In this document: positions 2,688 through 58,781 of the stretch, in pieces | Position numbering within the stretch: position 1 is the stretch's first letter | Layout of the letters: each line of letters starts with the position of its first letter | Origin: an uncultured Bacilli bacterium | GTDB taxonomy: Bacteria > Bacillota_I > Bacilli_A > RF39 > UBA660 | NCBI GenBank assembly: GCA_944332295.1 | Contig: CALVJR010000002.1 | Span: 72,589 to 136,588 of the forward strand | Reading direction: 5' to 3' | Length of the DNA: 64,000 nt | Translations under genes and position numbers: made by a program | Notes under the pieces: model-generated | What the model was told of the DNA's origin: nothing | Seen by the model: the letters and a program-made list of their open reading frames with translations, nothing else | Database searches by the model: none

Positions 2688-3065
2688 ATGAATACACGAA
2701 ATACAAAGCAAAAAGAAATTATTTTGAGTGCATTACAACAGATGCATAATCATCCATCTATTTTGGAATTGTATGAACAAGTTAGGGAATTTGACTCTTC
2801 TATAGGACAAGCTACAGTTTATAGAAATGTATCTAAATTAGTGGAAGAAGGATTGATTTTGAAAATTCCAACGAATGATGGTGTGGATCATTATGATGGT
2901 AATTGTATGAATCATTATCATTTTATGTGTCAAAAATGTCATAAATTATATGATTTATATGATGATAGTTTTGTACCGTTTTTGAAAAAAGTGGGAAAAG
3001 GACGTAATTTTAAAGTAGATCGTGTTCATCTGTTACTTGAAGGCATATGTCACGAGTGTGAATAA
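2688..3065 (+). CDS. Fur-family metalloregulator, probably PerR-like
   Basis: 125 aa with CxxC...CxxC zinc-site cysteines (CQKCH...CHEC) and a winged-helix N-terminus. It sits immediately upstream of rubrerythrin and has its own operator. Confidence 0.7.
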   Translation: MNTRNTKQKEIILSALQQMHNHPSILELYEQVREFDSSIGQATVYRNVSKLVEEGLILKIPTNDGVDHYDGNCMNHYHFMCQKCHKLYDLYDDSFVPFLKKVGKGRNFKVDRVHLLLEGICHECE

Positions 3066-3202
3066 TGATTAAGTTTCTTTACTGATTTAATAATTATAAA
3101 GGGACTCTTGATATACTTGTTTGTTTATGTTACTATACAGGTGATAAGTATATTAGGGATTTGTTCCTTTAATATAAAATAATTTAGAAAGAAGGTATTT
3201 TA

Positions 3203-3745
3203 ATGGAATTAAAAGGATCTAAGACTGAACAAAACTTAATGACTGCTTTTGCAGGAGAAAGTCAAGCTAGAAATAAATATACTTTTTATGCTAGTAAGGC
3301 TCGTAAAGATGGTTATGAACAATTAGCTGCTATATTCGAAGAGACTGCTAATAATGAAAAAGAACATGCTAAACTTTGGTTTAAAGAGTTACATGGTGGT
3401 GAAATTCCTGAGACTACTGTTAATTTAGAAGATGCTGCTGCTGGTGAAAACTATGAGTGGACAGATATGTATAAGAGTTTTGCAGAGACTGCTAGAGAAG
3501 AAGGATTTACAAGACTTGCTACATTATTTGAAAAAGTTGGCGAGATTGAAAAAGAACATGAAAAGAGATATTTAACATTACTTCAGAATATTAAAGATGA
3601 TAGAGTATTTAAAAAAGATGGAGACAAAATTTGGGTATGCCGCAATTGTGGATATGTTTATACAGGAAAAGAAGCTCTTGCAGTTTGTCCAGTTTGTGCT
3701 CATCCACAAAGCTTCATGGAAGTTAAAGCTGACAATTACGAATAG
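3203..3745 (+). CDS. rbr: rubrerythrin (ferritin-like diiron domain plus C-terminal rubredoxin-like CxxC...CxxC)
   Basis: The ExxH diiron motifs (EKEH twice) and the C-terminal CRNCGY...CPVC are diagnostic. Confidence 0.85.
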
Positions 3746-3816
3746 TTCGGATTATTTGATTATGAAATCTACACCGTATGGTGTGGATTTTTTAGTTAGT
3801 ATTGGGATGAGTTTTT

Positions 3817-4116
3817 TTATACAAGTTTATCTTGTTGTGCTAAATAGTATAAATATGAGAAGGTACTTGCGAAAATAATAACGCTATTAATTAGCCTTCT
3901 TTCCTGGGTGTTAGGGATGGTTTGTTCTGTGATGTATATACATAATAAAGTGATGATTGTGATAGTCCAACCTAATTTTTGTAAATTTTTTCTTTGATTA
4001 TAAGGAGGTTCTTGTAAGAGTTTATTTCCATAGTTAATAAATATCGTTGCTAAGACTATACTTATGATTGCCCAGGTTATGAAGACTTGGTTGTTGATTA
4101 ATGAGTATTTTTTCAT
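3817..4116 (-). CDS. small membrane protein (99 aa, 3 predicted TM segments), hypothetical
   Basis: Hydrophobic ORF between convergent or flanking genes; weak RBS. Confidence 0.3.
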   Translation of the reverse strand: MKKYSLINNQVFITWAIISIVLATIFINYGNKLLQEPPYNQRKNLQKLGWTITIITLLCIYITEQTIPNTQERRLINSVIIFASTFSYLYYLAQQDKLV

Positions 4117-45414: not shown

Positions 45415-45489
45415 GCGGATGTAGTTTAGTGGTTAGAATACGGCCTTGCCAAGGCTGTGACGGGGATTCGATTTCCCTCATCCGCTCCA
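45415..45489 (+). tRNA. tRNA-Gly (anticodon GCC)
   Basis: TTGCCAA loop, CCA; 1-nt spacer after tRNA-Cys. Confidence 0.85.
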
Positions 45490-45528
45490 TAAGGTAAAAT
45501 CGTCGCACCAATGTGACGTTAATGATTA

Positions 45529-45556
45529 AATCAATCTGAAAAGATTGATTTTTTTG
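45529..45556 (+). terminator. rho-independent terminator after tRNA-Cys/tRNA-Gly
   Basis: AATCAATCT-GAAA-AGATTGATT hairpin plus T6. Confidence 0.7.
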
Positions 45557-45587
45557 TGCGTTATTGCAAAGAAAGGTGTGATGTGAT

Positions 45588-45860
45588 ATGATTAAAATAA
45601 TTAAAAAGAAAATCAATATGAGTGATGAACTCAAAACCAAAATTAATTGGTCTTGCAAATTTAATAACAGACCCTACCAGATTATTGAGGGTCACCTAAG
45701 AATTGTGGAACATACAAATCTAGCGTATGTTGAGCCACACAAAGTAATTATTGGAGAAACACTATATTTATTCTTCAATGAACAAAAACATTTTTATATT
45801 GGGAATTTAAAGAAGAAAATCCCTATCGCTGATTTATCAGAGTACATAGCAAGGCATTAA
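45588..45860 (+). CDS. small protein A (90 aa); paralogue of 50527..50817, and each precedes a large serine recombinase
   Basis: Shared block ...GHL-I-(E/D)(H/N)TN(L/I)-(Y/I)-EPH(K/R)(V/I)I... between the two small proteins. Confidence 0.5.
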   Translation: MIKIIKKKINMSDELKTKINWSCKFNNRPYQIIEGHLRIVEHTNLAYVEPHKVIIGETLYLFFNEQKHFYIGNLKKKIPIADLSEYIARH

Positions 45861-45928
45861 TTAATTGAGAGTTTATATACTCCCACAATATTGGTTTATT
45901 TTGTCGTGTAAATAAATTAATATGTTAG

Positions 45929-47833
<1,905 letters not shown>

Positions 47834-47836
47834 ATT

Positions 47837-48190
47837 ATGGAATTAAAATATACAAAAACTGGTGATTATGAATTACCAAATTTAACTTTAAATGATAATA
47901 AAAAAGGAACAATTAATAAGTATGGAATGTTAAGGCTTGATTATTTAAAGCAACATAAAAAAGCACTTTATATCACACTTTTAATGAAAGATGAACTTAC
48001 TAATCATCTTGTTTCAGTAAGTAAAGATGCAGAAAATTTATTAAATAATATGATGGAAAGTTATAAAAAATCAGATGAAAAACTATCTGAAAAAAGTAAA
48101 GAAATTAATCAACTTGAATGGGTAAAATTGATGAATAATTATAAAAATATGGCTGAGGAAATAATTTTAAAGGAGTTAATATATGTATGA
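47837..48190 (+). CDS. TnpV-like transposon protein (117 aa)
   Basis: Tightly coupled downstream of the recombinase as in Tn4451. Pattern YTKTGDYELPNL...KYGMLRLDYLKQH...LEWVKLMNN resembles the TnpV family as I recall it. Confidence 0.45.
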   Translation: MELKYTKTGDYELPNLTLNDNKKGTINKYGMLRLDYLKQHKKALYITLLMKDELTNHLVSVSKDAENLLNNMMESYKKSDEKLSEKSKEINQLEWVKLMNNYKNMAEEIILKELIYV

Positions 48191-48285
48191 TGTTGTCTAT
48201 AAGCAAGCACTGAATTTGTACTCCCGTACAAATTCTATTATGGGAATTCCCATACCCTTAAATTTTAGAAAGGAGACCTTAAATT

Positions 48286-48657
48286 ATGAGAATAAGAAAT
48301 AATAAAGTTAATGTATTTTTAAGTGATGATGAAAAATTTATTTTAAAAAGAGATTCTTCAAAACTAAAATTATCTCAATCTGAATATATTAGAAATTTAA
48401 TTATAGGATATGAGATTAAAATTCCAGAAGTCAAAGAAGAACAAAAGTCTAAAAAAGATGAATATATTATAGAGAATATTGCCAAATCATTAGAAGAAAA
48501 TATTGAATGCTTAATTAAAGTAAAAAATAAATTTCATTATCTTGGATATTTTGAAGATGAACGAGCAATCGGAGCTAAAATTGAATATTTAAAATTGCAA
48601 AATAGCACATTAAAAAAATATATTCCTATTGAAAATGATAAAGACAATGCCAACTAA
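48286..48657 (+). CDS. ribbon-helix-helix protein (MobC-like)
   Basis: N-terminal motif VFLSDDEKFILKRDSSKLKLSQSEYIRNLI, typical of MobC-type relaxosome accessory proteins. Confidence 0.4.
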   Translation: MRIRNNKVNVFLSDDEKFILKRDSSKLKLSQSEYIRNLIIGYEIKIPEVKEEQKSKKDEYIIENIAKSLEENIECLIKVKNKFHYLGYFEDERAIGAKIEYLKLQNSTLKKYIPIENDKDNAN

Positions 48658-50270
48658 ACATTGTCTTTTAATAATAATTTATGATTATCAAAGTGATAAA
48701 ACTTATTACATATTTCATTTATTTTTTCATTATGTGTAGCAATTATTAATGTTTTATCTTTAAAGTGTTTTAATATAAAATCCACTACAATTTCTTCCGT
48801 ATGTTTATCTAAATTAGATGTAGGTTCATCTAAAATATAAACATCTTTTCCCATTAGATAACTTCTTAAAATATTTATTCTTCTTTTTTGTCCAGTTGAA
48901 AGCTTTAATCCTTTTTCGCCAACTATTGTATATATTCCATCTTCAAACATTAGAATTTCATCTAGTTCTAATTCTTTTAAATAATTTATTATTTTTTCAT
49001 CTGAAATATTCTTATCTAAACATAAATTTTCTTTTATAGTCATATTAAATAATTCTATTTCTTGACTTACAACACCTATGTCAAGTCTATAATCTCTCAT
49101 ATTATTTTCATCTATTTTAGCCTGTCCTTTATAGATAGTTATATTTCCTAAAATCAAGTTTATTATAGATGTTTTGCCTTGACCAGATTTCCCAGTTATT
49201 GAAATTTTATCTTTGTTTTTTATTATCATATTATCAACTTTAATATTAAAATTAGATTCTTTATATTTTAAATCTATATTTGATAATTCTATTTTATTAA
49301 AATTAGTTAATAACTCTCTTTCATCCAATTTACTAAATAATTGAACACATTTTTTCTTTAATGCTTTTAATTCAAAACCACTAACTATTGTTCCAGACAA
49401 TTCATCAAATATAAATCCCATTTCTAAATAAATAGATATATAAAATGTAATTATTCCTAGTGTATCAATTCCATTAGATAAATCTACAACTGCTTTTATA
49501 ATTGCTAATGCAAAAGGTATCACTATTAAAATATTTCTTATAAGTTCTTCTAATGAATAGCATTTAACATACTTATTTTGCTTTTTATAACATTCTTTTC
49601 CTTCTTTTGATACAATTTTTTCAAAATATTTGTTATCGTTCAATGCTTTGACAGTTCTAATATTACTAATAAAATCTTGATATACAGATGAATACTCATA
49701 TTCTTTATCATACAATTCTTCAACGTGTTTATTAGATTTTTTTAATATATATACACTTATCATAACACATAAAATACTTAATACTAATGATACTAAGAAT
49801 AAAATTTTCGATTGTTGAAATACAGTAAAAAAGAAAAATCCAAAAGATAATAATATTCCTATGTATTCTGCACTAAGAATCTTTTTAACTAATTCAGATA
49901 TCTTTTCTATTATATTTTCTAAATATCCCGTTTGATACTTAGATAAAGTTTCTACTGGCACTTTTGTTAATTTCTTGTAATATTCTAAATATTGAACATT
50001 AGAATAATCATATAAATAATTATCCATAACTTTTCTTTCTAAATATAATACAAAACATCTAACTGATTTAGAAGCAATAAATATTGAAGCAACAATTATT
50101 GCTTTTTCAACAGTAAAAGGCATTGTTAAAAAAAGAGCAAAAGTATAAGGAATAACGTAGTAAATAAAATCTAAAAAAGCCTCAATAAACAAGCATAAAA
50201 AAACTTTTTTTCTGTCTAATAATCCAAATATAAAATTAATGTTGTTTTTTTTCATCTTAATCCTCACCAC
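48654..50270 (-). CDS. ABC exporter, fused permease (6 TM) plus ATPase, 538 aa
   Basis: Walker A GKSGQGKTS, signature LSTGQKRR, Walker B ILDEPTSNLD; TM domain N-terminal. Confidence 0.75.
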   Translation of the reverse strand: MVRIKMKKNNINFIFGLLDRKKVFLCLFIEAFLDFIYYVIPYTFALFLTMPFTVEKAIIVASIFIASKSVRCFVLYLERKVMDNYLYDYSNVQYLEYYKKLTKVPVETLSKYQTGYLENIIEKISELVKKILSAEYIGILLSFGFFFFTVFQQSKILFLVSLVLSILCVMISVYILKKSNKHVEELYDKEYEYSSVYQDFISNIRTVKALNDNKYFEKIVSKEGKECYKKQNKYVKCYSLEELIRNILIVIPFALAIIKAVVDLSNGIDTLGIITFYISIYLEMGFIFDELSGTIVSGFELKALKKKCVQLFSKLDERELLTNFNKIELSNIDLKYKESNFNIKVDNMIIKNKDKISITGKSGQGKTSIINLILGNITIYKGQAKIDENNMRDYRLDIGVVSQEIELFNMTIKENLCLDKNISDEKIINYLKELELDEILMFEDGIYTIVGEKGLKLSTGQKRRINILRSYLMGKDVYILDEPTSNLDKHTEEIVVDFILKHFKDKTLIIATHNEKINEICNKFYHFDNHKLLLKDNV

Positions 50271-50526
50271 ATAGTATTTTCTTACAAGTAAATTATACTA
50301 TATTTTGACATTTTTTTCTATACTACCTTGAAAATATCTAGGAAAATGATATAATTGATTCATCAGAGAGATTTAATCAATCTTGGGAGTATAATTTTCT
50401 CATACGTGTATAGTTTAGGCTCCATTGAGGTTGAAAGTCGCACATTTGGCGATTTCTATATAAAGAAAAGTTCATAGTATTTGATACTATGGACTTTTTT
50501 CATGCTCAAAGGAGGGATGAATATTT

Positions 50527-50817
50527 ATGAAAACAGTCATAACAGAATTACCTTTTCCTTGTGAAATTAAAAACAAAATTAAAATGAAAGTTAGTACAGG
50601 AAATTTGGAAATTAATTTTTTGTCGGGACATCTTATCAAAATCGATAATACCAATATCAGTATAGAAGAACCGCATCGAATTATTGTAAAGAAAGATAAT
50701 ATGATATTACTTGCTATGCTTTATAATAATGAAGATAAAATATATTTACCAAATAATAATATCATCATTACTTTAACCAAATACATTTCCATTCTAAACT
50801 CTATAAATAAAATTTAA
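50527..50817 (+). CDS. small protein B (96 aa), paralogue of 45588..45860
   Basis: See small protein A; RBS AAAGGAGGGATGAATATTT ATG. Confidence 0.5.
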   Translation: MKTVITELPFPCEIKNKIKMKVSTGNLEINFLSGHLIKIDNTNISIEEPHRIIVKKDNMILLAMLYNNEDKIYLPNNNIIITLTKYISILNSINKI

Positions 50818-50987
50818 AAAAATTTTTGGGGGTATATTTTTATTTAATAGTTTAATTAATGGTTTATTTTAACCATTTGCTTAATAATTTAAACATTTTT
50901 GTAAAATTCAGTTCGACTATTTTTCCTACTAAAATTCCTATAAAATTCCCTACTGACTTTTCGATTGTCAAGTTTTATAATTAAGTA

Positions 50988-51007
50988 AGGTAGACAAATT
51001 TCTACCT
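50988..51007. repeat. perfect palindrome AGGTAGA-CAAATT-TCTACCT upstream of recombinase 2
   Basis: 7-bp arms. Same AGGT...ACCT arm ends as the 45932-45955 palindrome before recombinase 1, but not followed by a T run. Confidence 0.6.
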
Positions 51008-51055
51008 AATAATGATTAGGACTTAGTCTTTATATAATTTTTAGTTATTGTTTGA

Positions 51056-51087
51056 AACACAAGGAAAATTACTCCCTTGTGTTTTTT
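51056..51087 (+). terminator. hairpin AACACAAGG...CCTTGTGTT plus T6 immediately upstream of recombinase 2
   Basis: Read directly. Confidence 0.55.
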
Positions 51088-51115
51088 CGTGTGCAAAGGA
51101 GTTGGTAAAAAATAA

Positions 51116-52858
<1,743 letters not shown>

Positions 52859-53056
52859 AACTATCTCAATTTTTTATTTTAAAAGGGGGTTATATATTGA
52901 ATGAATTTTTTAAATATCTACTACCACAGTTATTAAGTTATTTTGGTAGTGAAAAACTAGTTTTAGAGGACTTTATACCTAAAGCAATAGAAAATCATTA
53001 CGGAAATCTATTGCTTCCGTATGAGCCAAATAATAAAGAAAATATGGAGAATAAAG

Positions 53057-53299
53057 ATGATGAAATTAACAAATGAAGATATTAATAAAAATCATGTGGA
53101 TACTATTTCTCAATATTATGTATTAGATTATCTAAAAAGGCAGCTTAACATTAACGAATTTGAAATTTATCTATATGACAAAGATACAATAAAAGTCATT
53201 GATAAAAACCTAGAAACTGGGTACTTTAAATATAATAGTTGCACCAAAAATATAGACTTTTTTGAGAATTTGGAAAATGAGCGAGAAATGGAAATTTAA
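53057..53299 (+). CDS. hypothetical small protein (81 aa from the ATG after GGAGA)
   Basis: ORF with RBS; the upstream in-frame extension is unlikely. Confidence 0.3.
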   Translation: MMKLTNEDINKNHVDTISQYYVLDYLKRQLNINEFEIYLYDKDTIKVIDKNLETGYFKYNSCTKNIDFFENLENEREMEI

Positions 53300-53410
53300 A
53301 CACTTTTTTATAAAAAGGTAATACCTCTAAAGACTTATAAAATAAGGGAAAATCGAAGGTGTGTATTACCAAATGTGTCAAATTGTGGTTATTTCGGCAA
53401 GTGCCGAAAA

Positions 53411-53480
53411 ATTTTTGCACCAAAAAAACGGCGAAAAATCCTTATAAAATAAGGGTTTTCGTTTTTTTTTGGTGCAATTC
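53411..53480. repeat. about 65-bp hyphenated palindrome between convergent genes (arms GCACCAAAAAAACG / CGTTTTTTTTTGGTGC around a near-palindromic CTTATAAAATAAGGG core), within a region of reiterated TTGCACCAAAAAAA-type and CTTATAAAATAAGGG motifs (53330-53600)
   Basis: Read directly. CTTATAAAATAAGGG occurs at 53334-53348 and 53441-53455; GGTGCAA/TGCACC copies at 53417, 53471, 53524 and 53567. Confidence 0.6.
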
Positions 53481-53631
53481 CCATATCCTGTTGTATTTTT
53501 TTTAGGTATAAAAATGAGTTTTTTTACCAAAAAAGCATATGCGATCAAAAAAATATTGGTGCAACATTTTTTCGATTTTTTGTGAAGTAAAAAACAACTC
53601 CTGTACTAGCAAGTTGTTTGCATTTTAATAT

Positions 53632-53850
53632 TTATAACTTTTGTAAATTTCCATAATTACTAGATATAAAAACATTAAAAACTTTATGTTCGTATTTTTT
53701 CTGCAAATCAGTAATATCAAGAATTATTTTTTTTAATGTTTTTATGTTTTTAGTAAGAATGATAAAATTAATTATTTCGTTTTCTTCTATGACATTATAT
53801 GAAATGACTGTATCTTCATCGAGAAAAATATTATTATTAGTTTTATTCAT
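53632..53850 (-). CDS. hypothetical small protein (72 aa)
   Basis: ORF whose start overlaps the stop of an upstream reading frame (ATGAATAA). Confidence 0.35.
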   Translation of the reverse strand: MNKTNNNIFLDEDTVISYNVIEENEIINFIILTKNIKTLKKIILDITDLQKKYEHKVFNVFISSNYGNLQKL

Positions 53851-54146
53851 ATTGTATGCTCATCAATTCTTCTAAAGATTTACATTCTTCAAGATATTTT
53901 CTAAATGTATCATCATATTTTTTCTCAAGTTGTAGTTTCTCATTTTCCCATTCCCTATGAGATTTACGAAATAATTTACAAGGCTCATTATCAATTAACA
54001 CATCATATTGTTCTCTAATGATTTTACATTGATTATCATAGAAATTAGCAAAAGTTAAAGTACTATCTCTTAAATGAATGAATTGTATAGTAAATAGTTT
54101 ATCTATTATTACTTCATTAGATAGTATTTCATTTTTTCTTTTTCAT
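53843..54146 (-). pseudogene. about 100-codon ORF interrupted by a frameshift in an A6 (T6 on the plus strand, 54132-54137) homopolymer; translationally coupled to 53632..53850
   Basis: ATG AAA AAG AAA AAA TGA in frame 0. Removing one A fuses it to a 95-codon open frame ending in TAA that overlaps the downstream ATG. Confidence 0.3.
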
Positions 54147-54289
54147 ATAGACCACCTTTTGTTTTTGTGAATAATTTTTCCAATTCTGCAAACCCTATTC
54201 CTAGTACTAATAGGAATTTCAAACCAAAAAAATATTTTTAGTATATCATTGACTTATGATTTTAAACAAAGAATTGGAGGTGTGTAGAT

Positions 54290-54502
54290 ATGCAACTTAA
54301 GGCGACTGATTATAAACCAAAAGAAATCATTAAATTCATTCGTGAATGGACAGAATTAACTCAAAATGATTTTGCAAAATCTATACACCGTAGTAGAAAG
54401 ACTATTGAAGGTTATGAATATGGAACAATTAATGTTAGTCTTGCTACACTTTTAAAAATTTGTAAGACACATGATATAGAAATTATTATTCGCAAGAAAT
54501 AG
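54290..54502 (+). CDS. XRE-family HTH transcriptional regulator (70 aa)
   Basis: HTH_3 pattern (IREWTELTQNDFAKSIHRSRKTIEGYEYG). Confidence 0.6.
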   Translation: MQLKATDYKPKEIIKFIREWTELTQNDFAKSIHRSRKTIEGYEYGTINVSLATLLKICKTHDIEIIIRKK

Positions 54503-54660
54503 TTTCTTTTTTTTATTTTCACTTCATTTACTTCTTTATACTTAATGTACTATCTATTGTTGTCATAATGATTATATCATATTTTTGCTCATATACACCG
54601 AAGAAAATTAAAAATAGCCGAATTTAATGTCATTATTTTTATTGAGGATAGGTGAAAATA

Positions 54661-55107
54661 ATGAATCAAAGGTTAGAAGATTTAAGAGACGAAAAGAACT
54701 TATTGAAAAAACAAGTAGCAAAAGACATTGGTGTGGTGGAATCGGTTTATTCAGAATGGGAAAATGGAAAGCTATCTATTCCAACTAAAAGAATATTTCA
54801 ATTAGCAAACTATTTTGAGGTAAATATTGATTATATGTTAGGCATTTCAAATAATAGAACACATATCAAATCTAATTGTAATATTGATATTCATGTAGTA
54901 GCAAGCAGAATTAAGGAAATAAGAAAATCACTCAAACTAACTATGAGAGAACTAGCAAGTAAGTTTAATACATCTTCTTCTGCTATTAGTAATTATGAAA
55001 ACGAAAAATATTTAATATTAAGTCCATTTTTAGTTGAATTATGCAAATCTACTAACTATTCTATTGACTGGGTACTTGGTAGATCTAATAAAAAGTATCG
55101 CGATTAA
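54661..55107 (+). CDS. XRE-family regulator with two tandem HTH domains
   Basis: Two HTH_3-like repeats (LLKKQVAKDIGVVESVYSEWENG... and LTMRELASKFNTSSSAISNYENEK...); the start is set at the ATG after GGTGA. Confidence 0.55.
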   Translation: MNQRLEDLRDEKNLLKKQVAKDIGVVESVYSEWENGKLSIPTKRIFQLANYFEVNIDYMLGISNNRTHIKSNCNIDIHVVASRIKEIRKSLKLTMRELASKFNTSSSAISNYENEKYLILSPFLVELCKSTNYSIDWVLGRSNKKYRD

Positions 55108-55201
55108 TCGTTAATTTATCTAAAATCAAAGTCAAAATCAAAAAACATTGTTATTAAATTAATGTTATGGTATAATAAAACTCGATTGAGGGGGAATTTG
55201 C

Positions 55202-55741
55202 ATGGAAAAAACGCGAAGAAACAGAATTATAGTTATGTCTATTATGACTTACTATGCACGACAAATATTTGATGAAACCAAAGGATATGAGTTTAGAAAA
55301 TCACCATTAAAGGACCAAGATTTAGATAAAAAAATTTATGTTTATTCTGCAAAAGAAGATAAAGCTCTAATTGGATACATGAAAGTTTCAGAAATTTTAA
55401 AGGGTAATACTACACAAATTTTAAAATCTACCGGTTATGATGTGAGACCAGATGGTCATGAAATCGTTGATTATTATGGAAAAGACTTTCAAAGATGTTG
55501 TGCTTTAAAATTATATGACGTAACTGAATTTGAAGAATATCTTACATTAAGAGATATGCGAAAAATTGATCCTAATATTAATCTACCACAATATTATTCC
55601 TATATTTATGAAAGTAATCCTTTATATGATGTTATTAGAGAATGGGATGAAGCATTTAGTTTAGATGGAAATTTGTGTAAAAATCCAACTAAACAGAAAC
55701 AATTGATTTTACAAAGAGGTATAGAAAGAAGGAGAAAATAA
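55202..55741 (+). CDS. ASCH/PUA-like domain protein (179 aa)
   Basis: N-terminal block SIMTYYARQIFDETKGYEFRK resembles the ASCH beta-barrel start (SIKP-YAE-I--G-K-YEFRR). Confidence 0.4.
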   Translation: MEKTRRNRIIVMSIMTYYARQIFDETKGYEFRKSPLKDQDLDKKIYVYSAKEDKALIGYMKVSEILKGNTTQILKSTGYDVRPDGHEIVDYYGKDFQRCCALKLYDVTEFEEYLTLRDMRKIDPNINLPQYYSYIYESNPLYDVIREWDEAFSLDGNLCKNPTKQKQLILQRGIERRRK

Positions 55742-55742
55742 A

Positions 55743-56087
55743 ATGATTCATGAAATGAAATTACAACCAGAATATTACAATTTTATATTGAATGGTACAA
55801 AAAGAATTGAAATAAGATTATATGATGAAAAAAGACAAAGTATAAAATTAGGAGATACAATTAAATTTTTAAAGGAGCCTGAATTATCAGAATCTTTTAA
55901 TGCAAAAGTTATAGGTTTATTAAGATATAATTCTTTCAAAGATATGTTTAAAGATTTTGATATTTCTATTTTGTCTGATAAATCAATGACAAAAGAAGAA
56001 TTAATTAAAGTGCTAGAACAATTTTATACTAAAGAAAAACAGGAACAATATGGTGTATTAGGTATAAGAATAGAATTGATAGATTAA
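55743..56087 (+). CDS. ASCH-domain protein (114 aa)
   Basis: MKLQPEYYNFILNGTKRIEIRLYDEKRQ is a classic ASCH N-terminus. Confidence 0.55.
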   Translation: MIHEMKLQPEYYNFILNGTKRIEIRLYDEKRQSIKLGDTIKFLKEPELSESFNAKVIGLLRYNSFKDMFKDFDISILSDKSMTKEELIKVLEQFYTKEKQEQYGVLGIRIELID

Positions 56088-56169
56088 CTGATAGTCTATC
56101 TTTTTATTATTGTCAAAATAACAAAAAAGTGTTAGAATAAACAACATATTGTGAGGGAGGCTTGGTTTT

Positions 56170-56727
56170 ATGGTTTATATTGAAAGTTTAAAAAGTTATA
56201 TTGGAAAAATAAGTGATGAAGAATTTGCAGATTTAGCTAAAAGAATCTATGATATTACTGATTTTATTTGTGAAGATTATCCAAAACATAAAGAATGGTA
56301 TTTTCATAAACAACTACCTAGAATTTTTACACCAAGTGGCGAGATTTTGTTTGCAAGATCAAATGAAGATGATAACACTATATTGGCAATGTCATGCTTA
56401 AAGAAAGATGAAGAAGAAAAGAAGATTTGTACTTTATATGTGTCAGATCAATGTAGAGGTCAACATTTAGGGACAAGAATGGTGGAAGCTTCTATGAAAT
56501 TTTTAGAAACTACAAAACCACTAATTACTTTGGCAGATTATAAATTACCTATGTTCCAACCAATAATAGATAAATATGGATGGGAATTAACTGAAATTGT
56601 TGAAGGATTATATAATGATAGAGCTAAAGAACTATGTTTTAATGGAACACTTACAAAACAAGCTAACATGGATAAACAAGGACCGTCTTTAGTAAAAAAA
56701 CTTAAAGATGATAATTCAAATACTTAA
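56170..56727 (+). CDS. GNAT-fold acetyltransferase-like protein
   Basis: Motif-A-like CRGQHLGTRMVEA within a 185-aa protein of GNAT size. Confidence 0.45.
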   Translation: MVYIESLKSYIGKISDEEFADLAKRIYDITDFICEDYPKHKEWYFHKQLPRIFTPSGEILFARSNEDDNTILAMSCLKKDEEEKKICTLYVSDQCRGQHLGTRMVEASMKFLETTKPLITLADYKLPMFQPIIDKYGWELTEIVEGLYNDRAKELCFNGTLTKQANMDKQGPSLVKKLKDDNSNT

Positions 56728-56912
56728 AAATGTTGTTGTAATAAAAAAATATATACGGTATAATTAATACATCAAATACGAATGAACTTTTTACTAAAGT
56801 GTGCGTAACCCCTTTAGTAAACGCTCCATAAGAGCAATTAAAACTCATACTGTTTGGTATGAGTTTTTTATAATGCATTTTTATTGCATTTTTAAGTGCA
56901 ATTGTAGTTTAG

Positions 56913-58154
56913 CTATTTTTTTTGTAAATGTTTTTTTAAAGATTTTGATATCTGGTCACATTTTTCTTTATATGGTTTGCTATTTATTTCTAAATATATA
57001 TTAGGAACATTTGGATTAATCATTAACGAAAGTATATTGTTTAGCATATTATTATATTCTGTTAGAGTGTTTTTACTTACTATACTTTCTAATTTGTCGG
57101 TGTCATTATTGATTGCGATTTCATCAAAAAAGCCTTCAAATGTAGTAAACAAGTCACCTGATAAAGGTAATATAGAAAGATACACAGATTGACATTCTCC
57201 ATTATTATCAAATAGTTGTGGTAAAATATTTTTATCTTCGAAAGCATGCTTATCAGTTCTTAGTTCATTAATTACATTATAGTCAATACCTCCGTTTTCG
57301 ACAGCATGCCTTATTTCATGATAGAAATTATGATTTAGATTAAATCCTTTATTTTCTAATATAGGAGATATAATCCAATTATTTATTGTCTCTATATTAT
57401 TTTCTTTAATGTAGAAATGTGCACATTGCATTTGTCCATTTTGTAAAAAGATATCTTGTTGTAACATTCTGTATAATAAATCTTCTAGGCTTGTCTGTTT
57501 TAGATCGTTTTCACTAATACCATTATTTTTTGTAAAGTATCTAAATAGTCTTTGTCCCCATAATGTTTTCTTTAGTAAGGATATTTGATATTCTGTTTCT
57601 ATTTTCTTCATTTTATCTAATATTGAATCGATAATGTGAGTATTAGTTACGGGCTTGCATCCTAAATTGTTGCATTGCGTAAAATATTTTTGCTGTGATT
57701 TGTGTATTTGATTTTTCATATCATCAAGCGTATATGGATTATTTAATATGTTAATTACATCGCTAGAGTAGCTACTTAAAGATAATTCTTCAATAGGTAT
57801 ATCTTTTTTATTTAATACTGCTTCAGAGATTCCATATTCTTTACATAATAATCTTCTTATGTTCATTATTTTCATTTTTTTTAATTCTTTATTAATTTTT
57901 ATGTAATCTAAATATTCTGTAATCATGTTATCATATTCTATTTGACTTTTAAAATGATTATTAAAATCTTTTAGTTCTTCGTATATTAAATCTGGTGTAG
58001 AACTCATTAAATAGAAAGTATGATTTATTCTGTGTTCTATCAGTTCTTTATTTTTTTTACCATATTGTGACGTGTAATAAGATATTAATGTCTTATTCAT
58101 ATCCGCTAGTATTTCTTGGCAATAAATAACTTGCTCTATAAATTTTGTTGTCAT
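56913..58154 (-). CDS. hypothetical 413-aa protein containing an HExxH motif (FYHEIRHAVENGG)
   Basis: Motif read directly; family unknown. Confidence 0.4.
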   Translation of the reverse strand: MTTKFIEQVIYCQEILADMNKTLISYYTSQYGKKNKELIEHRINHTFYLMSSTPDLIYEELKDFNNHFKSQIEYDNMITEYLDYIKINKELKKMKIMNIRRLLCKEYGISEAVLNKKDIPIEELSLSSYSSDVINILNNPYTLDDMKNQIHKSQQKYFTQCNNLGCKPVTNTHIIDSILDKMKKIETEYQISLLKKTLWGQRLFRYFTKNNGISENDLKQTSLEDLLYRMLQQDIFLQNGQMQCAHFYIKENNIETINNWIISPILENKGFNLNHNFYHEIRHAVENGGIDYNVINELRTDKHAFEDKNILPQLFDNNGECQSVYLSILPLSGDLFTTFEGFFDEIAINNDTDKLESIVSKNTLTEYNNMLNNILSLMINPNVPNIYLEINSKPYKEKCDQISKSLKKHLQKK

Positions 58155-58226
58155 TGATTATTTACCTCTTTCTGCTGTTTATGAAGTATTATAGATTATA
58201 TCAGTTTAAAAGAAAAGGTTGCTAGT

Positions 58227-58781
58227 CTATTTTTGTAATTCTTTTAATAATTCTTTCGTATCATCATGCATTTTGATTTCTTTTTCTTTTAGTCTTATTT
58301 TTTGTTTTTCTAGACAATAGAGTAGAGCATTGTCTATATTTTGATATGCTATCTCTTTTACTGGTTTTAATGCTTCTGGAATTTTTTCTCTACCGATTTT
58401 ATCTGCAATATAAATAATTTTTGCTAGTAAATCCATACTTTTATTTCCTATTGTATGGTATTTTATAGCATTACAAATATCGTCATCTAAATTATATTTT
58501 TCTTTTGCTATTACGGCTCCAATATCGGCATGTTTAATATTTATGTTTTCTTTATTTTCTAAATCTTTCGATAATTTTCCTTTTTCTATCCAATAAATAT
58601 TTTCTTCTTCTGTTAATTCTTTTGCAACATCATGAATTAATCCTGCTAGGTATGCTTTATCTTCATTTATATGATAATGTTTTGCTAAAGACTTTGCTTC
58701 TTTTGCAACCATAATACTATGATTATATCTTTTTGGTGAAAGAGAGTTTTTTAAATCTTCGTTTATCTGGTCTATTTTCAT
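58227..58781 (-). CDS. YqeK-like HD-domain hydrolase (bis(5'-nucleosyl)-tetraphosphatase family)
   Basis: HD motif (LIHDVAKE) and IKYHTIGNKSMDLLAKIIYIADKIG, matching the YqeK pattern IRYHTSG...LEKVIYVADYIEP. Confidence 0.55.
   Translation of the reverse strand: MKIDQINEDLKNSLSPKRYNHSIMVAKEAKSLAKHYHINEDKAYLAGLIHDVAKELTEEENIYWIEKGKLSKDLENKENINIKHADIGAVIAKEKYNLDDDICNAIKYHTIGNKSMDLLAKIIYIADKIGREKIPEALKPVKEIAYQNIDNALLYCLEKQKIRLKEKEIKMHDDTKELLKELQK

Follow-up and report, generated by a model that had tools for sequence, protein, structure and literature searches.

DarTG is a toxin-antitoxin and defence system based on the reversible modification of nucleic-acid bases. To our knowledge, the erasure of N4-acetylcytidine (ac4C) by ASCH proteins has only just been shown, and the abundance of ASCH proteins in bacteria and mobile elements has so far lacked an explanation. 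Here, we analyse a three-gene module (hereafter, the trio) that encodes two ASCH proteins, ORF3 and ORF4 (the latter also called ASCH4), and a small GNAT acetyltransferase (ORF5), and that is carried by a mobile element of an uncultured Bacilli bacterium. The DNA analysed is a stretch of 64,000 nucleotides (contig CALVJR010000002.1, positions 72,589 to 136,588), referred to as the window, and the window coordinates given below count from its first base.

The lysine and glutamate of the GKER octapeptide of ASCH proteins are essential for the removal of ac4C from tRNA by TthASCH, EOLA1 and TRIP4-ASCH (bioRxiv 10.64898/2026.02.27.708502). ASCH genes of the YqfB clade have been found linked to TmcA in an operon, a precedent for the pairing of a writer with an eraser, and fusions and operons with acetyltransferases have been mentioned for ASCH domains of the TRIP4 clade (bioRxiv 10.64898/2026.08.01.741249). 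The ASCH protein of Zymomonas mobilis, ZmASCH (PDB 5GUQ/5GUS), is a Mg-dependent ribonuclease that binds single-stranded RNA (ssRNA), and residues Y47, K53 and Q127 of its cleft are needed for nucleic-acid binding and ssRNA cleavage. "Almost all" of the (PIN)-GNAT-EVE operons contain a second PUA-like protein of the ASCH type, often with an AAA_17 ATPase; for these operons, a toxin-antitoxin or defence function, possibly through acetylation of a base, has been predicted (Bell et al. 2020, PMC7641849). As cited in that work, the prediction of (PIN)-GNAT-EVE operons with ASCH was also made by Iyer et al. 2013 (NAR 41:7635).

Linkage of the three genes

All five open reading frames (ORFs) listed in the original prediction were recovered at their coordinates, co-directional on the plus strand (Table 1): two genes for XRE-family helix-turn-helix (HTH) proteins followed by the trio. 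A scan with an ORF3 profile of one genome per species, in which gene content was mapped by tblastn and hidden Markov models (HMMs), returned 51 loci, mostly from gut metagenome-assembled genomes labelled Bacilli, Tenericutes or Firmicutes, together with some Clostridia. All three genes are kept in approximately 38 of these 51 species-level loci, and dozens of species-level genomes have the trio. The genes are linked in more than 100 loci despite at least three gene orders, i.e., ORF3>ASCH4>GNAT, as in the window; a GNAT gene divergent from ORF3>ASCH4, which is the commonest; and ASCH4>GNAT>ORF3. Such an arrangement is far beyond chance.

The three kinds of genes also occur as natural fusions in all pairwise combinations: ORF3 with ASCH4 (P0040 and P0091, both of 293 aa), ASCH with GNAT (at least 11 of the best 150 GNAT-family cluster representatives) and GNAT with ORF3 (P0338). 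A metagenome scan with the fusions returned 79 loci, in approximately 40 of which the ASCH-GNAT fusion is followed, some 70 nt further on and in convergent orientation on the opposite strand, by a stand-alone ASCH4 orthologue with an intact GTKRIELR motif (median E 1e-54 to the ASCH4 HMM). ASCH4 is also present in 65 of 66 GNAT-anchored loci, a count made with rough thresholds for intact GNAT genes at least 2 kb from both contig ends, the loci not being de-replicated. The rule that emerges is that this GNAT occurs together with ASCH4 and one more PUA-like module, which is ORF3 in some loci and a fused ASCH domain in others. The linkage kept through permutations of gene order, the complete set of pairwise fusions and the near-constant presence of ASCH4 beside the GNAT support a functional coupling of the GNAT with the two ASCH genes, as the original prediction had supposed.

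Incomplete versions of the trio show a recurrent pattern. The GNAT gene is frameshifted while both ASCH genes are intact in L010 and L012. In L164-L168 (~3059-3842), upstream of hisS, an intact ASCH4 lies beside a 5′-truncated ORF3 that has lost its K-E-R region, and in L169-L172 (3218-3842), between dlt-like genes and PPDK, an intact ASCH4 lies beside a 64-residue GNAT fragment. The ASCH4 copies of these relic loci (L164-L172) are 88-89% identical and come from abundant gut species; in the assembly collection, the two hisS-context proteins account for 208 and 104 indexed blocks and the dlt-context protein for 36. An NT5C nucleotidase adjoins one ORF3 relic.

Only where the element of the window recurs nearly unchanged does the trio have the XRE genes and the recombinase beside it, and most loci have no XRE neighbour. 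Certain other elements do have similar double-HTH genes next to the trio, but at its opposite side and on the opposite strand (L015, L016 and L053, minus strand, 37-39% identity; L068-L074). Membership of the XRE proteins in the system was therefore rejected by synteny and by the position of the cassette boundary and of the cassette's own promoter, both downstream of the XRE genes, so that the XRE control put forward in the original prediction is not supported. XRE1 is part of the element and not of the conserved trio, while XRE2, for which gene callers place the start three codons later on identical contigs (148 aa), is probably a regulator of the element.

The two ASCH proteins

ORF4 is a classic ASCH protein, with a match to the Pfam ASCH family (4e-13) and to the Pyrococcus protein PH0355 (PDB 2Z0T, 6e-17). 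Its gene starts at the ATG at 55743 (MIHEMKLQ...), one base past the ORF3 stop codon, and this one-base spacing is kept in nearly all homologous loci; the N-terminus quoted for it in the original prediction begins at an internal methionine. The octapeptide of ORF4 reads G18-T-K20-R-I-E23-I-R25, and its G, K, E, I and R residues are invariant among 39 distinct ASCH4 sequences. ASCH4 is the slowest-evolving member of the trio: its identity is 87-93% where that of ORF3 and the GNAT is 63-73%, and the best 120 among its 2468 homologues each reach at least 87%. The ORF4 family also has a phage counterpart, phrog_19935 (8e-21), and ORF4 weakly matches the single-gene PADLOC candidate PDC-S70 (E 4e-4).

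ORF3, described as ASCH-like in the original prediction, had no match in Pfam or NCBIfam, and the description proved right by both profile and fold. A profile of the ORF3 family matches the ZmASCH crystal structures 5GUQ/5GUS (2e-10), and the AlphaFold2 (AF2) model of ORF3 (predicted local distance difference test, pLDDT, 92) has ZmASCH as its best Foldseek match (E 1e-10), with a template modelling (TM) score of 0.64 when normalised by the query and of 0.75-0.81 when normalised by the target. TthASCH, EOLA1, TRIP4 and YqfB follow among the Foldseek matches of the model. ORF3 also matches PADLOC PDC-M11B (model PDLC04425, E 5.7e-19) and phrog_3136 (5e-19). Its octapeptide region reads E25-T-K27-G-Y-E30-F-R32, in which the leading G of the GxKxxExR pattern is not kept, K27 and E30 are at least 90% conserved and R32 is invariant in alignment A3. 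The invariant residues Y48, K54 and Q130 of ORF3 are the counterparts of the ZmASCH cleft residues Y47, K53 and Q127. ORF3 has two extra C-terminal helices of roughly 40 residues, an extension that the short Clostridia forms of the family do not have. In the assembly collection, 72 indexed blocks contain exactly this ORF3 protein, and 21 of the contigs were read.

As judged from these alignments, both ASCH proteins keep the lysine, glutamate and arginine on which ac4C deacetylation by related ASCH proteins depends. The conservation of the catalytic triads argues that ASCH4, at least, would be an amidohydrolase and not a passive reader.

The GNAT acetyltransferase

The assignment of ORF5 to the GNAT fold was borne out by its match to Acetyltransf_1 (9e-7) and by an AF2 model (pLDDT 81) of canonical GNAT topology; the protein also matches phrog_13728 (1e-14), and nothing in NCBIfam scored above the cut-off. 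Motif A reads R96-G97-Q-H99-L-G101 in the window and R96-G97-(L/Q)-(G/H)99-(I/L)-G101 in the family, in which R96 is invariant and G101 is kept in 37 of 40 sequences. The acetyl-CoA loop pattern R-G-x-(G/H)-x-G is thus kept, and the loss of this motif that would have refuted the original prediction was not seen, with the caveat that position 99 is a histidine in the window protein and in the whole of its co-directional clade (11 of the 40 sequences, down to ~75% identity), the remaining sequences having the canonical glycine. Since His99 is conserved across a clade, it argues against a dead enzyme and would rather be a lineage trait under conservation than an obvious inactivation. Nine polar residues are invariant in the family: E83, K85, D123, Y124, K125, Y136, Y148, N149 and E154.

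The fold relatives of the GNAT are generic (TM ~0.5-0.58, and ~0.55 for its best PDB matches) and include uncharacterised GNATs, SpeG, NatD and streptothricin acetyltransferases. A search of its profile against PDB sequences, with E values up to 1, gave six weak matches only, one of them to the putative streptothricin acetyltransferase 3PP9 (E 0.12).

Further copies of small GNAT genes were seen in other contexts. Solitary copies lie a few kb from a complete module in L013 (4226-4747, 72% identical) and L094 (3378-3854). A very widespread relative of the trio (L068-L074), whose GNAT, P0138, is indexed in 287 blocks, is carried by an element that also encodes a serine recombinase, a Mob_Pre relaxase and several HTH proteins; the left border of this element has a SpoIVA_ATPase fragment of 126-154 aa, and the element may interrupt or carry part of spoIVA.

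Relationship to the PDC-M11 operons

Plasmids searched by tblastn with ORF3 and the GNAT yielded, on a Pseudomonas plasmid, an operon with the gene order AAA_17 > GNAT-EVE > ASCH > small GNAT. Its GNAT-EVE protein (352 aa) matches PDC-M11A (1.8e-137) and has a Rhizobium homologue with a Pfam EVE domain; its ASCH protein (138 aa) matches PDC-M11B (1.8e-50) and aligns with the ORF3 profile (hhalign 96%, E 4e-9); and its small GNAT (198 aa) aligns with the GNAT family of the window (hhalign 98.6%, E 7e-16). Because the proteins of this operon match both PDC-M11A and PDC-M11B, the PDC-M11 system of PADLOC is the (PIN)-GNAT-EVE/ASCH system.

The small GNAT is a recurrent component of PDC-M11 operons, a role that we did not find noted in the literature searched. 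It lies within ~3 kb of a GNAT-EVE gene and an ORF3-like ASCH gene in Nitrosophilus, Paenibacillus and Methylobacterium, and the loci reached through the GNAT alone have GNAT-EVE within ~3 kb in all four cases (4/4). The small-GNAT loci beside GNAT-EVE are L075 (5413-6009), L081 (2857-3372), L082 (2920-3456) and L083 (2848-3483). GNAT-EVE followed by an ORF3-like ASCH gene also occurs in Rhizobium and in the Lactobacillus prophage Lj965.

Two of the three window genes are thus homologous to genes that neighbour each other in PDC-M11 operons. We nevertheless regard the trio as a relative of that system and not as a member, because GNAT-EVE, PIN and AAA_17 genes were absent from all the trio loci scanned (L001-L074, phmmer with two GNAT-EVE proteins) and because the window GNAT is unrelated to the GNAT of GNAT-EVE: its match to PDC-M11A (E 1.5e-3) covers the generic GNAT core only, and hhalign against a real GNAT-EVE protein gave a probability of 0.6%. 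No EVE domain was found in the window genes. The supposition that the trio is not a described system therefore stands in part. We did not find its three-gene architecture described or tested in the literature; on the other hand, the ORF3 family is the PDC-M11B component of the predicted (PIN)-GNAT-EVE operons, and contexts joining ASCH and acetyltransferase genes appear in a 2026 preprint.

Mobility of the trio

The trio is cargo of an integrative element, as originally predicted. Copies of the GCTCCAT sequence at the end of the tRNA-Gly gene, at the junction of two tandem modules and after the GNAT gene mark out module 2 as a serine-recombinase element of 6.4 kb that is integrated at tRNA-Gly and carries the trio at its far right. 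Its recombinase is CcrB/XisF-like, with matches below the cut-offs. Occupied, empty and alternative sites of the element were all seen. L002, otherwise 99.9% identical by blastn, does not have window positions 45491-50418, and the tRNA-Gly end is joined there directly to module 2 at the core sequence. At 99.6-99.7% identity, module 2 including the trio occurs in two other contexts, i.e., between Mob_Pre relaxase genes and another serine recombinase in L001/L003 and with a different left flank in L005. In L012 (Candidatus Faecimonas intestinavium), all that remains at this chromosomal site is the trio with the attR-like end, and the trio is 89% identical, vs 77% for the flanking core genes.

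The region shared with otherwise unrelated contigs (L008-L013) is limited to a cassette around the trio. The similarity ends at ~56737 in several of these contigs and otherwise at ~56830, and for L001, L008 and L013, it stops at the third GCTCCAT core. The cassette promoter, which lies ~10 nt into the similarity block, is conserved in L008-L012, and its -10 element is kept in L014-L017. The promoter-like site before the GNAT gene agrees with the separate, divergent transcription of this gene in most other loci. Within 4 kb of the trio, 355 neighbouring genes fall into 274 families, among which the sole recurrent family is the large serine recombinase (9 loci). The trio is therefore a horizontally mobile cassette on serine-recombinase and mobilisable elements. 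Positions 50800-58300 gave no near-identity match in cultured-phage and plasmid collections.

Proposed mechanism and alternative explanations

From the gene identities, folds, motifs, linkage, fusions, mobility and PDC-M11 homology described above, we infer a possible substrate, a division of labour between the ASCH proteins and a defence or toxic phenotype, if any. Our preferred reading, which we hold tentatively and at somewhat less than even confidence, is that the trio would write and erase acetyl marks on RNA, tRNA or nucleotides under the guidance of its ASCH proteins, as a part of genetic conflict. The GNAT would be an acetyl-CoA-dependent writer dedicated to the module and would cooperate with the two PUA-like ASCH proteins, probably as a complex, a physical cooperation for which the natural fusions argue. 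ORF3, which is basic and ZmASCH-like with a conserved nucleic-acid cleft, would most likely bind the RNA or single-stranded nucleic-acid substrate. ASCH4, which is acidic and has an invariant K-E-R triad, would most likely recognise and hydrolyse an N-acyl base of the ac4C type, and may thereby reverse or limit the mark made by the GNAT or recycle a released nucleoside. The module would act in conflict among mobile element, phage and host, as defence or addiction, and not in housekeeping; this role is favoured because the trio is a mobile cassette and an evolutionary relative of the predicted (PIN)-GNAT-EVE + ASCH conflict systems. A more specific version, in which the GNAT would arrest growth or counter phages by acetylating the exocyclic amine of a nucleobase, be it in tRNA or other RNA, in DNA or among the nucleotides of the pool, with ASCH4 as the dedicated eraser and ORF3 as the targeting protein, seems to us doubtful.

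Several observations weigh against the preferred reading. The GNAT of the window clade has a histidine in place of the second glycine of the acetyl-CoA loop; the protein is acidic, and it has no specific relative of known substrate. The catalytic glutamate is lost in the fused ASCH domain of 3 of 13 ASCH-GNAT fusions, and therefore not every ASCH domain in such systems would be an eraser. A scan of the IMG/VR phage contigs with the ORF3 profile returned nothing, and a scan with the GNAT profile returned three distant phage GNATs only (L065-L067, 30-32% identity), which have no ASCH neighbours; the trio is therefore not evidently phage-borne. Known defence genes were not enriched among 149 representative neighbours searched with Pfam and PADLOC, in a crude comparison with one representative per family and no background model; the scattered matches comprised one type IIG restriction-modification enzyme, a RecD-like protein and a few PDC models, with no dominant theme. 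In one Clostridia lineage (L063, 5399-9934; also L046 and L047), the genes of the trio, arranged as ASCH4>GNAT>short ORF3, are part of a tight co-directional operon of nucleotide hydrolases, with Phosphodiest (ENPP-like), His_Phos_1, CYTH, TfoX_N and Ham1/ITPase partners, the theme of which is nucleotide house-cleaning. Finally, no experimental work on the trio, on any ASCH/GNAT module or on PDC-M11 was found in the literature.

The nucleotide-hydrolase operons bring forward an explanation in terms of nucleoside or nucleotide housekeeping, in which ASCH4 would deacetylate free nucleosides of the N4-acetylcytidine type, as YqfB and EOLA1 do, and the GNAT and ORF3 would act on related modified or analogue nucleosides. 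The NT5C nucleotidase beside an ORF3 relic, the AAA_17 kinase-like genes of PDC-M11 operons, the retention of ASCH4 alone in stable chromosomal contexts and the acidity of ASCH4, which it shares with small-molecule enzymes of the YqfB type, are all consistent with this role. However, metabolic operons are usually syntenic, whereas the contexts of the trio are nearly all different; the cassette has recently passed between species, as its 88-98% nucleotide identity shows, and is carried by serine-recombinase and mobilisable elements; the ORF3 family has been flagged in defence contexts (PMC7641849); and salvage needs no dedicated acetyltransferase. We therefore consider housekeeping rather unlikely. 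The survival of ASCH4 beside frameshifted or fragmentary GNAT genes and truncated ORF3 genes can also be taken as the mark of an enzymatic toxin-antidote pair with a DarTG-like logic, in which a GNAT made toxic by its acetylation of a base in tRNA, RNA or DNA, or of an aminoacyl-tRNA, would be countered by ASCH4 as the antidote that removes the acetyl group, with ORF3 targeting or tuning the system, in addiction or abortive infection. Intact GNAT genes are almost always found near ASCH4, the catalytic triad of ASCH4 is invariant, ASCH proteins deacetylate ac4C, and a mobile cassette in variable contexts is what toxin-antitoxin modules look like. Nevertheless, the same pattern of loss is equally explained by an independent use of ASCH4; a toxin and its antidote in one polypeptide, as the ASCH-GNAT fusions would be, are unusual, and some of the fused ASCH domains do not have the catalytic glutamate; the GNAT is acidic, unlike tRNA-binding GNAT toxins; in most loci it is divergent and hence not co-transcribed with the putative antidote; and more distant GNATs are also found on their own (L161 and the phage loci L065-L067). 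This explanation is, in our judgement, improbable too.

A classical type II toxin-antitoxin pair of the AtaT/TacT/KacT kind, with an upstream XRE protein as the DNA-binding antitoxin and the ASCH genes as bystanders, is the least probable of the explanations weighed. GNAT toxins are a known class, and the XRE proteins have sub-threshold matches to the antitoxin families PezA, MqsA and HipB, but the XRE genes are outside the conserved cassette and absent from most loci, the conserved partners of the GNAT are ASCH proteins, and no ribbon-helix-helix (RHH)/DUF1778 domain was found in any neighbouring ORF. None of the six PDB sequence matches is annotated as a GNAT toxin, and no such toxin is named in the top 50 Foldseek matches. 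An AtaT/TacT-like toxin, to which the original prediction had pointed, was thus rejected, the affinity of the GNAT to such proteins not going beyond the generic fold. A TmcA/NAT10-like GNAT was likewise rejected, since hhalign against E. coli TmcA gave a probability of 0.1% with 29 columns of motif A aligned. It is also very improbable that the three genes are chance neighbours in a cargo region, the GNAT being, for example, an antibiotic acetyltransferase of the streptothricin or aminoglycoside type and the ASCH genes separate. Mobile elements often bear resistance genes, the profile of the GNAT is weakly similar to 3PP9, and streptothricin and aminoglycoside acetyltransferases are among its generic fold matches; this similarity, however, is no better than that to any GNAT (TM ~0.5), the genes stay together across three gene orders and are fused in three ways, and the pairing of an ORF3-type ASCH protein with a small GNAT extends across phyla.

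The trio joins an eraser-type ASCH protein, a second ASCH protein of the RNA-binding type and a dedicated acetyltransferase in one module that is very common and mobile in human-gut Firmicutes; ASCH4 alone has thousands of metagenomic homologues. Homology ties this module to a predicted defence/toxin class, PDC-M11 or (PIN)-GNAT-EVE. If the preferred writer/eraser reading is true, an acetyl mark that is written and removed on RNA, DNA or nucleotides would be a new reversible nucleic-acid modification in genetic conflict. If, in addition, the GNAT is toxic or anti-phage and ASCH4 is its eraser, the trio would be the first acetylation-based, DarTG-like system of reversible base modification, whether as toxin-antidote or as defence, and would provide a biochemical logic for the whole PDC-M11/(PIN)-GNAT-EVE class. 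With three genes in 1.7 kb, the module is small enough for direct testing.

Other features of the region

The coordinates of the genes, promoters and element ends are listed in Table 1. Module 1 (45491-50418) is a second mobile element, in tandem with module 2 at the same tRNA-Gly GCTCCAT site, and resembles Tn4451/Tn4453. Module 2 also has five small ORFs (96, 59, 92, 72 and 52 aa; 50527-50817, 52897-53299 and 53632-54001), which were given no family assignment and are conserved only in near-identical copies of the element. Between convergent small ORFs of module 2 lies a long stable hairpin (53415-53477; -55 kcal/mol and z -5.4 for a region of 201 nt), which is probably a bidirectional terminator and gave spurious Rfam microRNA matches. 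A small RNA gene after the GNAT gene, considered from a promoter-like site and a hairpin at 56736-56829, was rejected: Rfam gave nothing, and the region is limited to the window-type clade. Because it ends exactly at the third GCTCCAT copy, this region is now read as the attR end. Between the right end of the element and yqeK, an ORF of 413 aa (56913-58154, minus strand) had no family match in Pfam, NCBIfam, PADLOC or PHROGs; it is missing from the syntenic L012 locus and may therefore be accessory DNA as well.

Table 1. Coordinates of the trio, its cassette and the two tandem elements in the window
Feature	Coordinates	Strand	Evidence or remark
GCTCCAT core at the 3′ end of tRNA-Gly(GCC) (45415-45489)	45484..45490	+	Chromosomal attachment site of two tandem serine-recombinase elements
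Module 1, TnpX-like large serine recombinase	45947-47833		
Module 1, TnpV	47837-48190		
Module 1, NikA-like mobilisation protein	48286-48657		
Module 1, ABC transporter	48654-50270	minus	
Second GCTCCAT copy, module 1/module 2 junction	50419..50425	+	Left end of the trio-bearing element
Module 2, large serine recombinase, 580 aa	51116..52858	+	Resolvase 2e-37, Recombinase 1e-20, Zn_ribbon
XRE1, 70-aa XRE-family HTH protein (single Cro/C1-type HTH)	54290..54502	+	Pfam HTH_3 7e-7
XRE2, double-HTH XRE protein, 151 or 148 aa	54652..55107	+	Two HTH_3/HTH_19 stretches, 2e-22
Trio cassette, ~1.7 kb	55132..56829	+	88-98% nucleotide identity with otherwise unrelated contigs (L008-L013)
Cassette promoter TTGTTA-17 nt-TGgTATAAT (extended -10), then ribosome-binding site (RBS) GAGGGGGA	55148..55176	+	Inferred from sequence
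ORF3, ZmASCH-type ASCH, PDC-M11B family, 179 aa, pI 8.8	55202..55741	+	Profile and fold
ORF4 (ASCH4), classic small ASCH, 114 aa, pI 5.9	55743..56087	+	Pfam ASCH
Promoter-like site of the GNAT gene, TTGTCA-17 nt-TGtTAGAAT, then strong RBS GAGGGAGG	56110..56138	+	Consensus match only
ORF5, small divergent GNAT acetyltransferase, 185 aa, pI 5.3	56170..56727	+	Pfam Acetyltransf_1
Element right end, attR-like: conserved hairpin (56790-56821), then third GCTCCAT (56823-56829)	56790..56829	+	
Bidirectional terminator hairpin just outside the element	56840..56867	.	Sequence differs between loci

Comparison with known systems

With the GNAT toxin-antitoxin pairs AtaT-AtaR, TacT-TacA, KacT-KacA and ItaT-ItaR, the trio shares a small GNAT on mobile DNA, and a growth-arresting acetylation as a possible further likeness comes from the original prediction, but its GNAT is acidic and has ASCH proteins as conserved partners. 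The likeness to DarTG is conceptual only: a base-modifying transferase would be combined, on mobile DNA, with a hydrolase of a "reader/eraser" fold able to remove the mark. The modification would be acetylation instead of ADP-ribosylation, the folds are unrelated and without homology, and the toxicity of the trio and its reversal are at the level of concept.

The ASCH fold, the complete GKER of ORF4, the lysine, glutamate and arginine kept in ORF3 and the linkage to an acetyltransferase bring the trio close to YqfB, TthASCH, EOLA1 and TRIP4. It differs from the YqfB-TmcA pair in that its partner is a single-domain GNAT of 185 aa, in that it has two ASCH proteins instead of one and in that it is a mobile cassette rather than a core-genome gene pair, with a deacetylase activity that is predicted only. 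ZmASCH is the top structural and sequence match of ORF3, and both proteins are basic; however, the sequence identity is only 22%, S128 of ZmASCH corresponds to an invariant tyrosine in the ORF3 family, ZmASCH does not have the C-terminal extension of ORF3, and a GNAT partner has not been reported for it.

The trio differs from PDC-M11 in that its GNAT is not similar to the GNAT of GNAT-EVE and in that the stand-alone classic ASCH protein ORF4 takes the place of the EVE-bearing protein; it is found in gut Firmicutes and showed no link to either restriction-modification systems or prophages. Nevertheless, the ORF3 family is the ASCH partner in PDC-M11, the small-GNAT family of the window sits in the operons of that system, and both follow the same plan, in which mobile or accessory DNA encodes an acetyltransferase together with two PUA-like modules that differ from each other.

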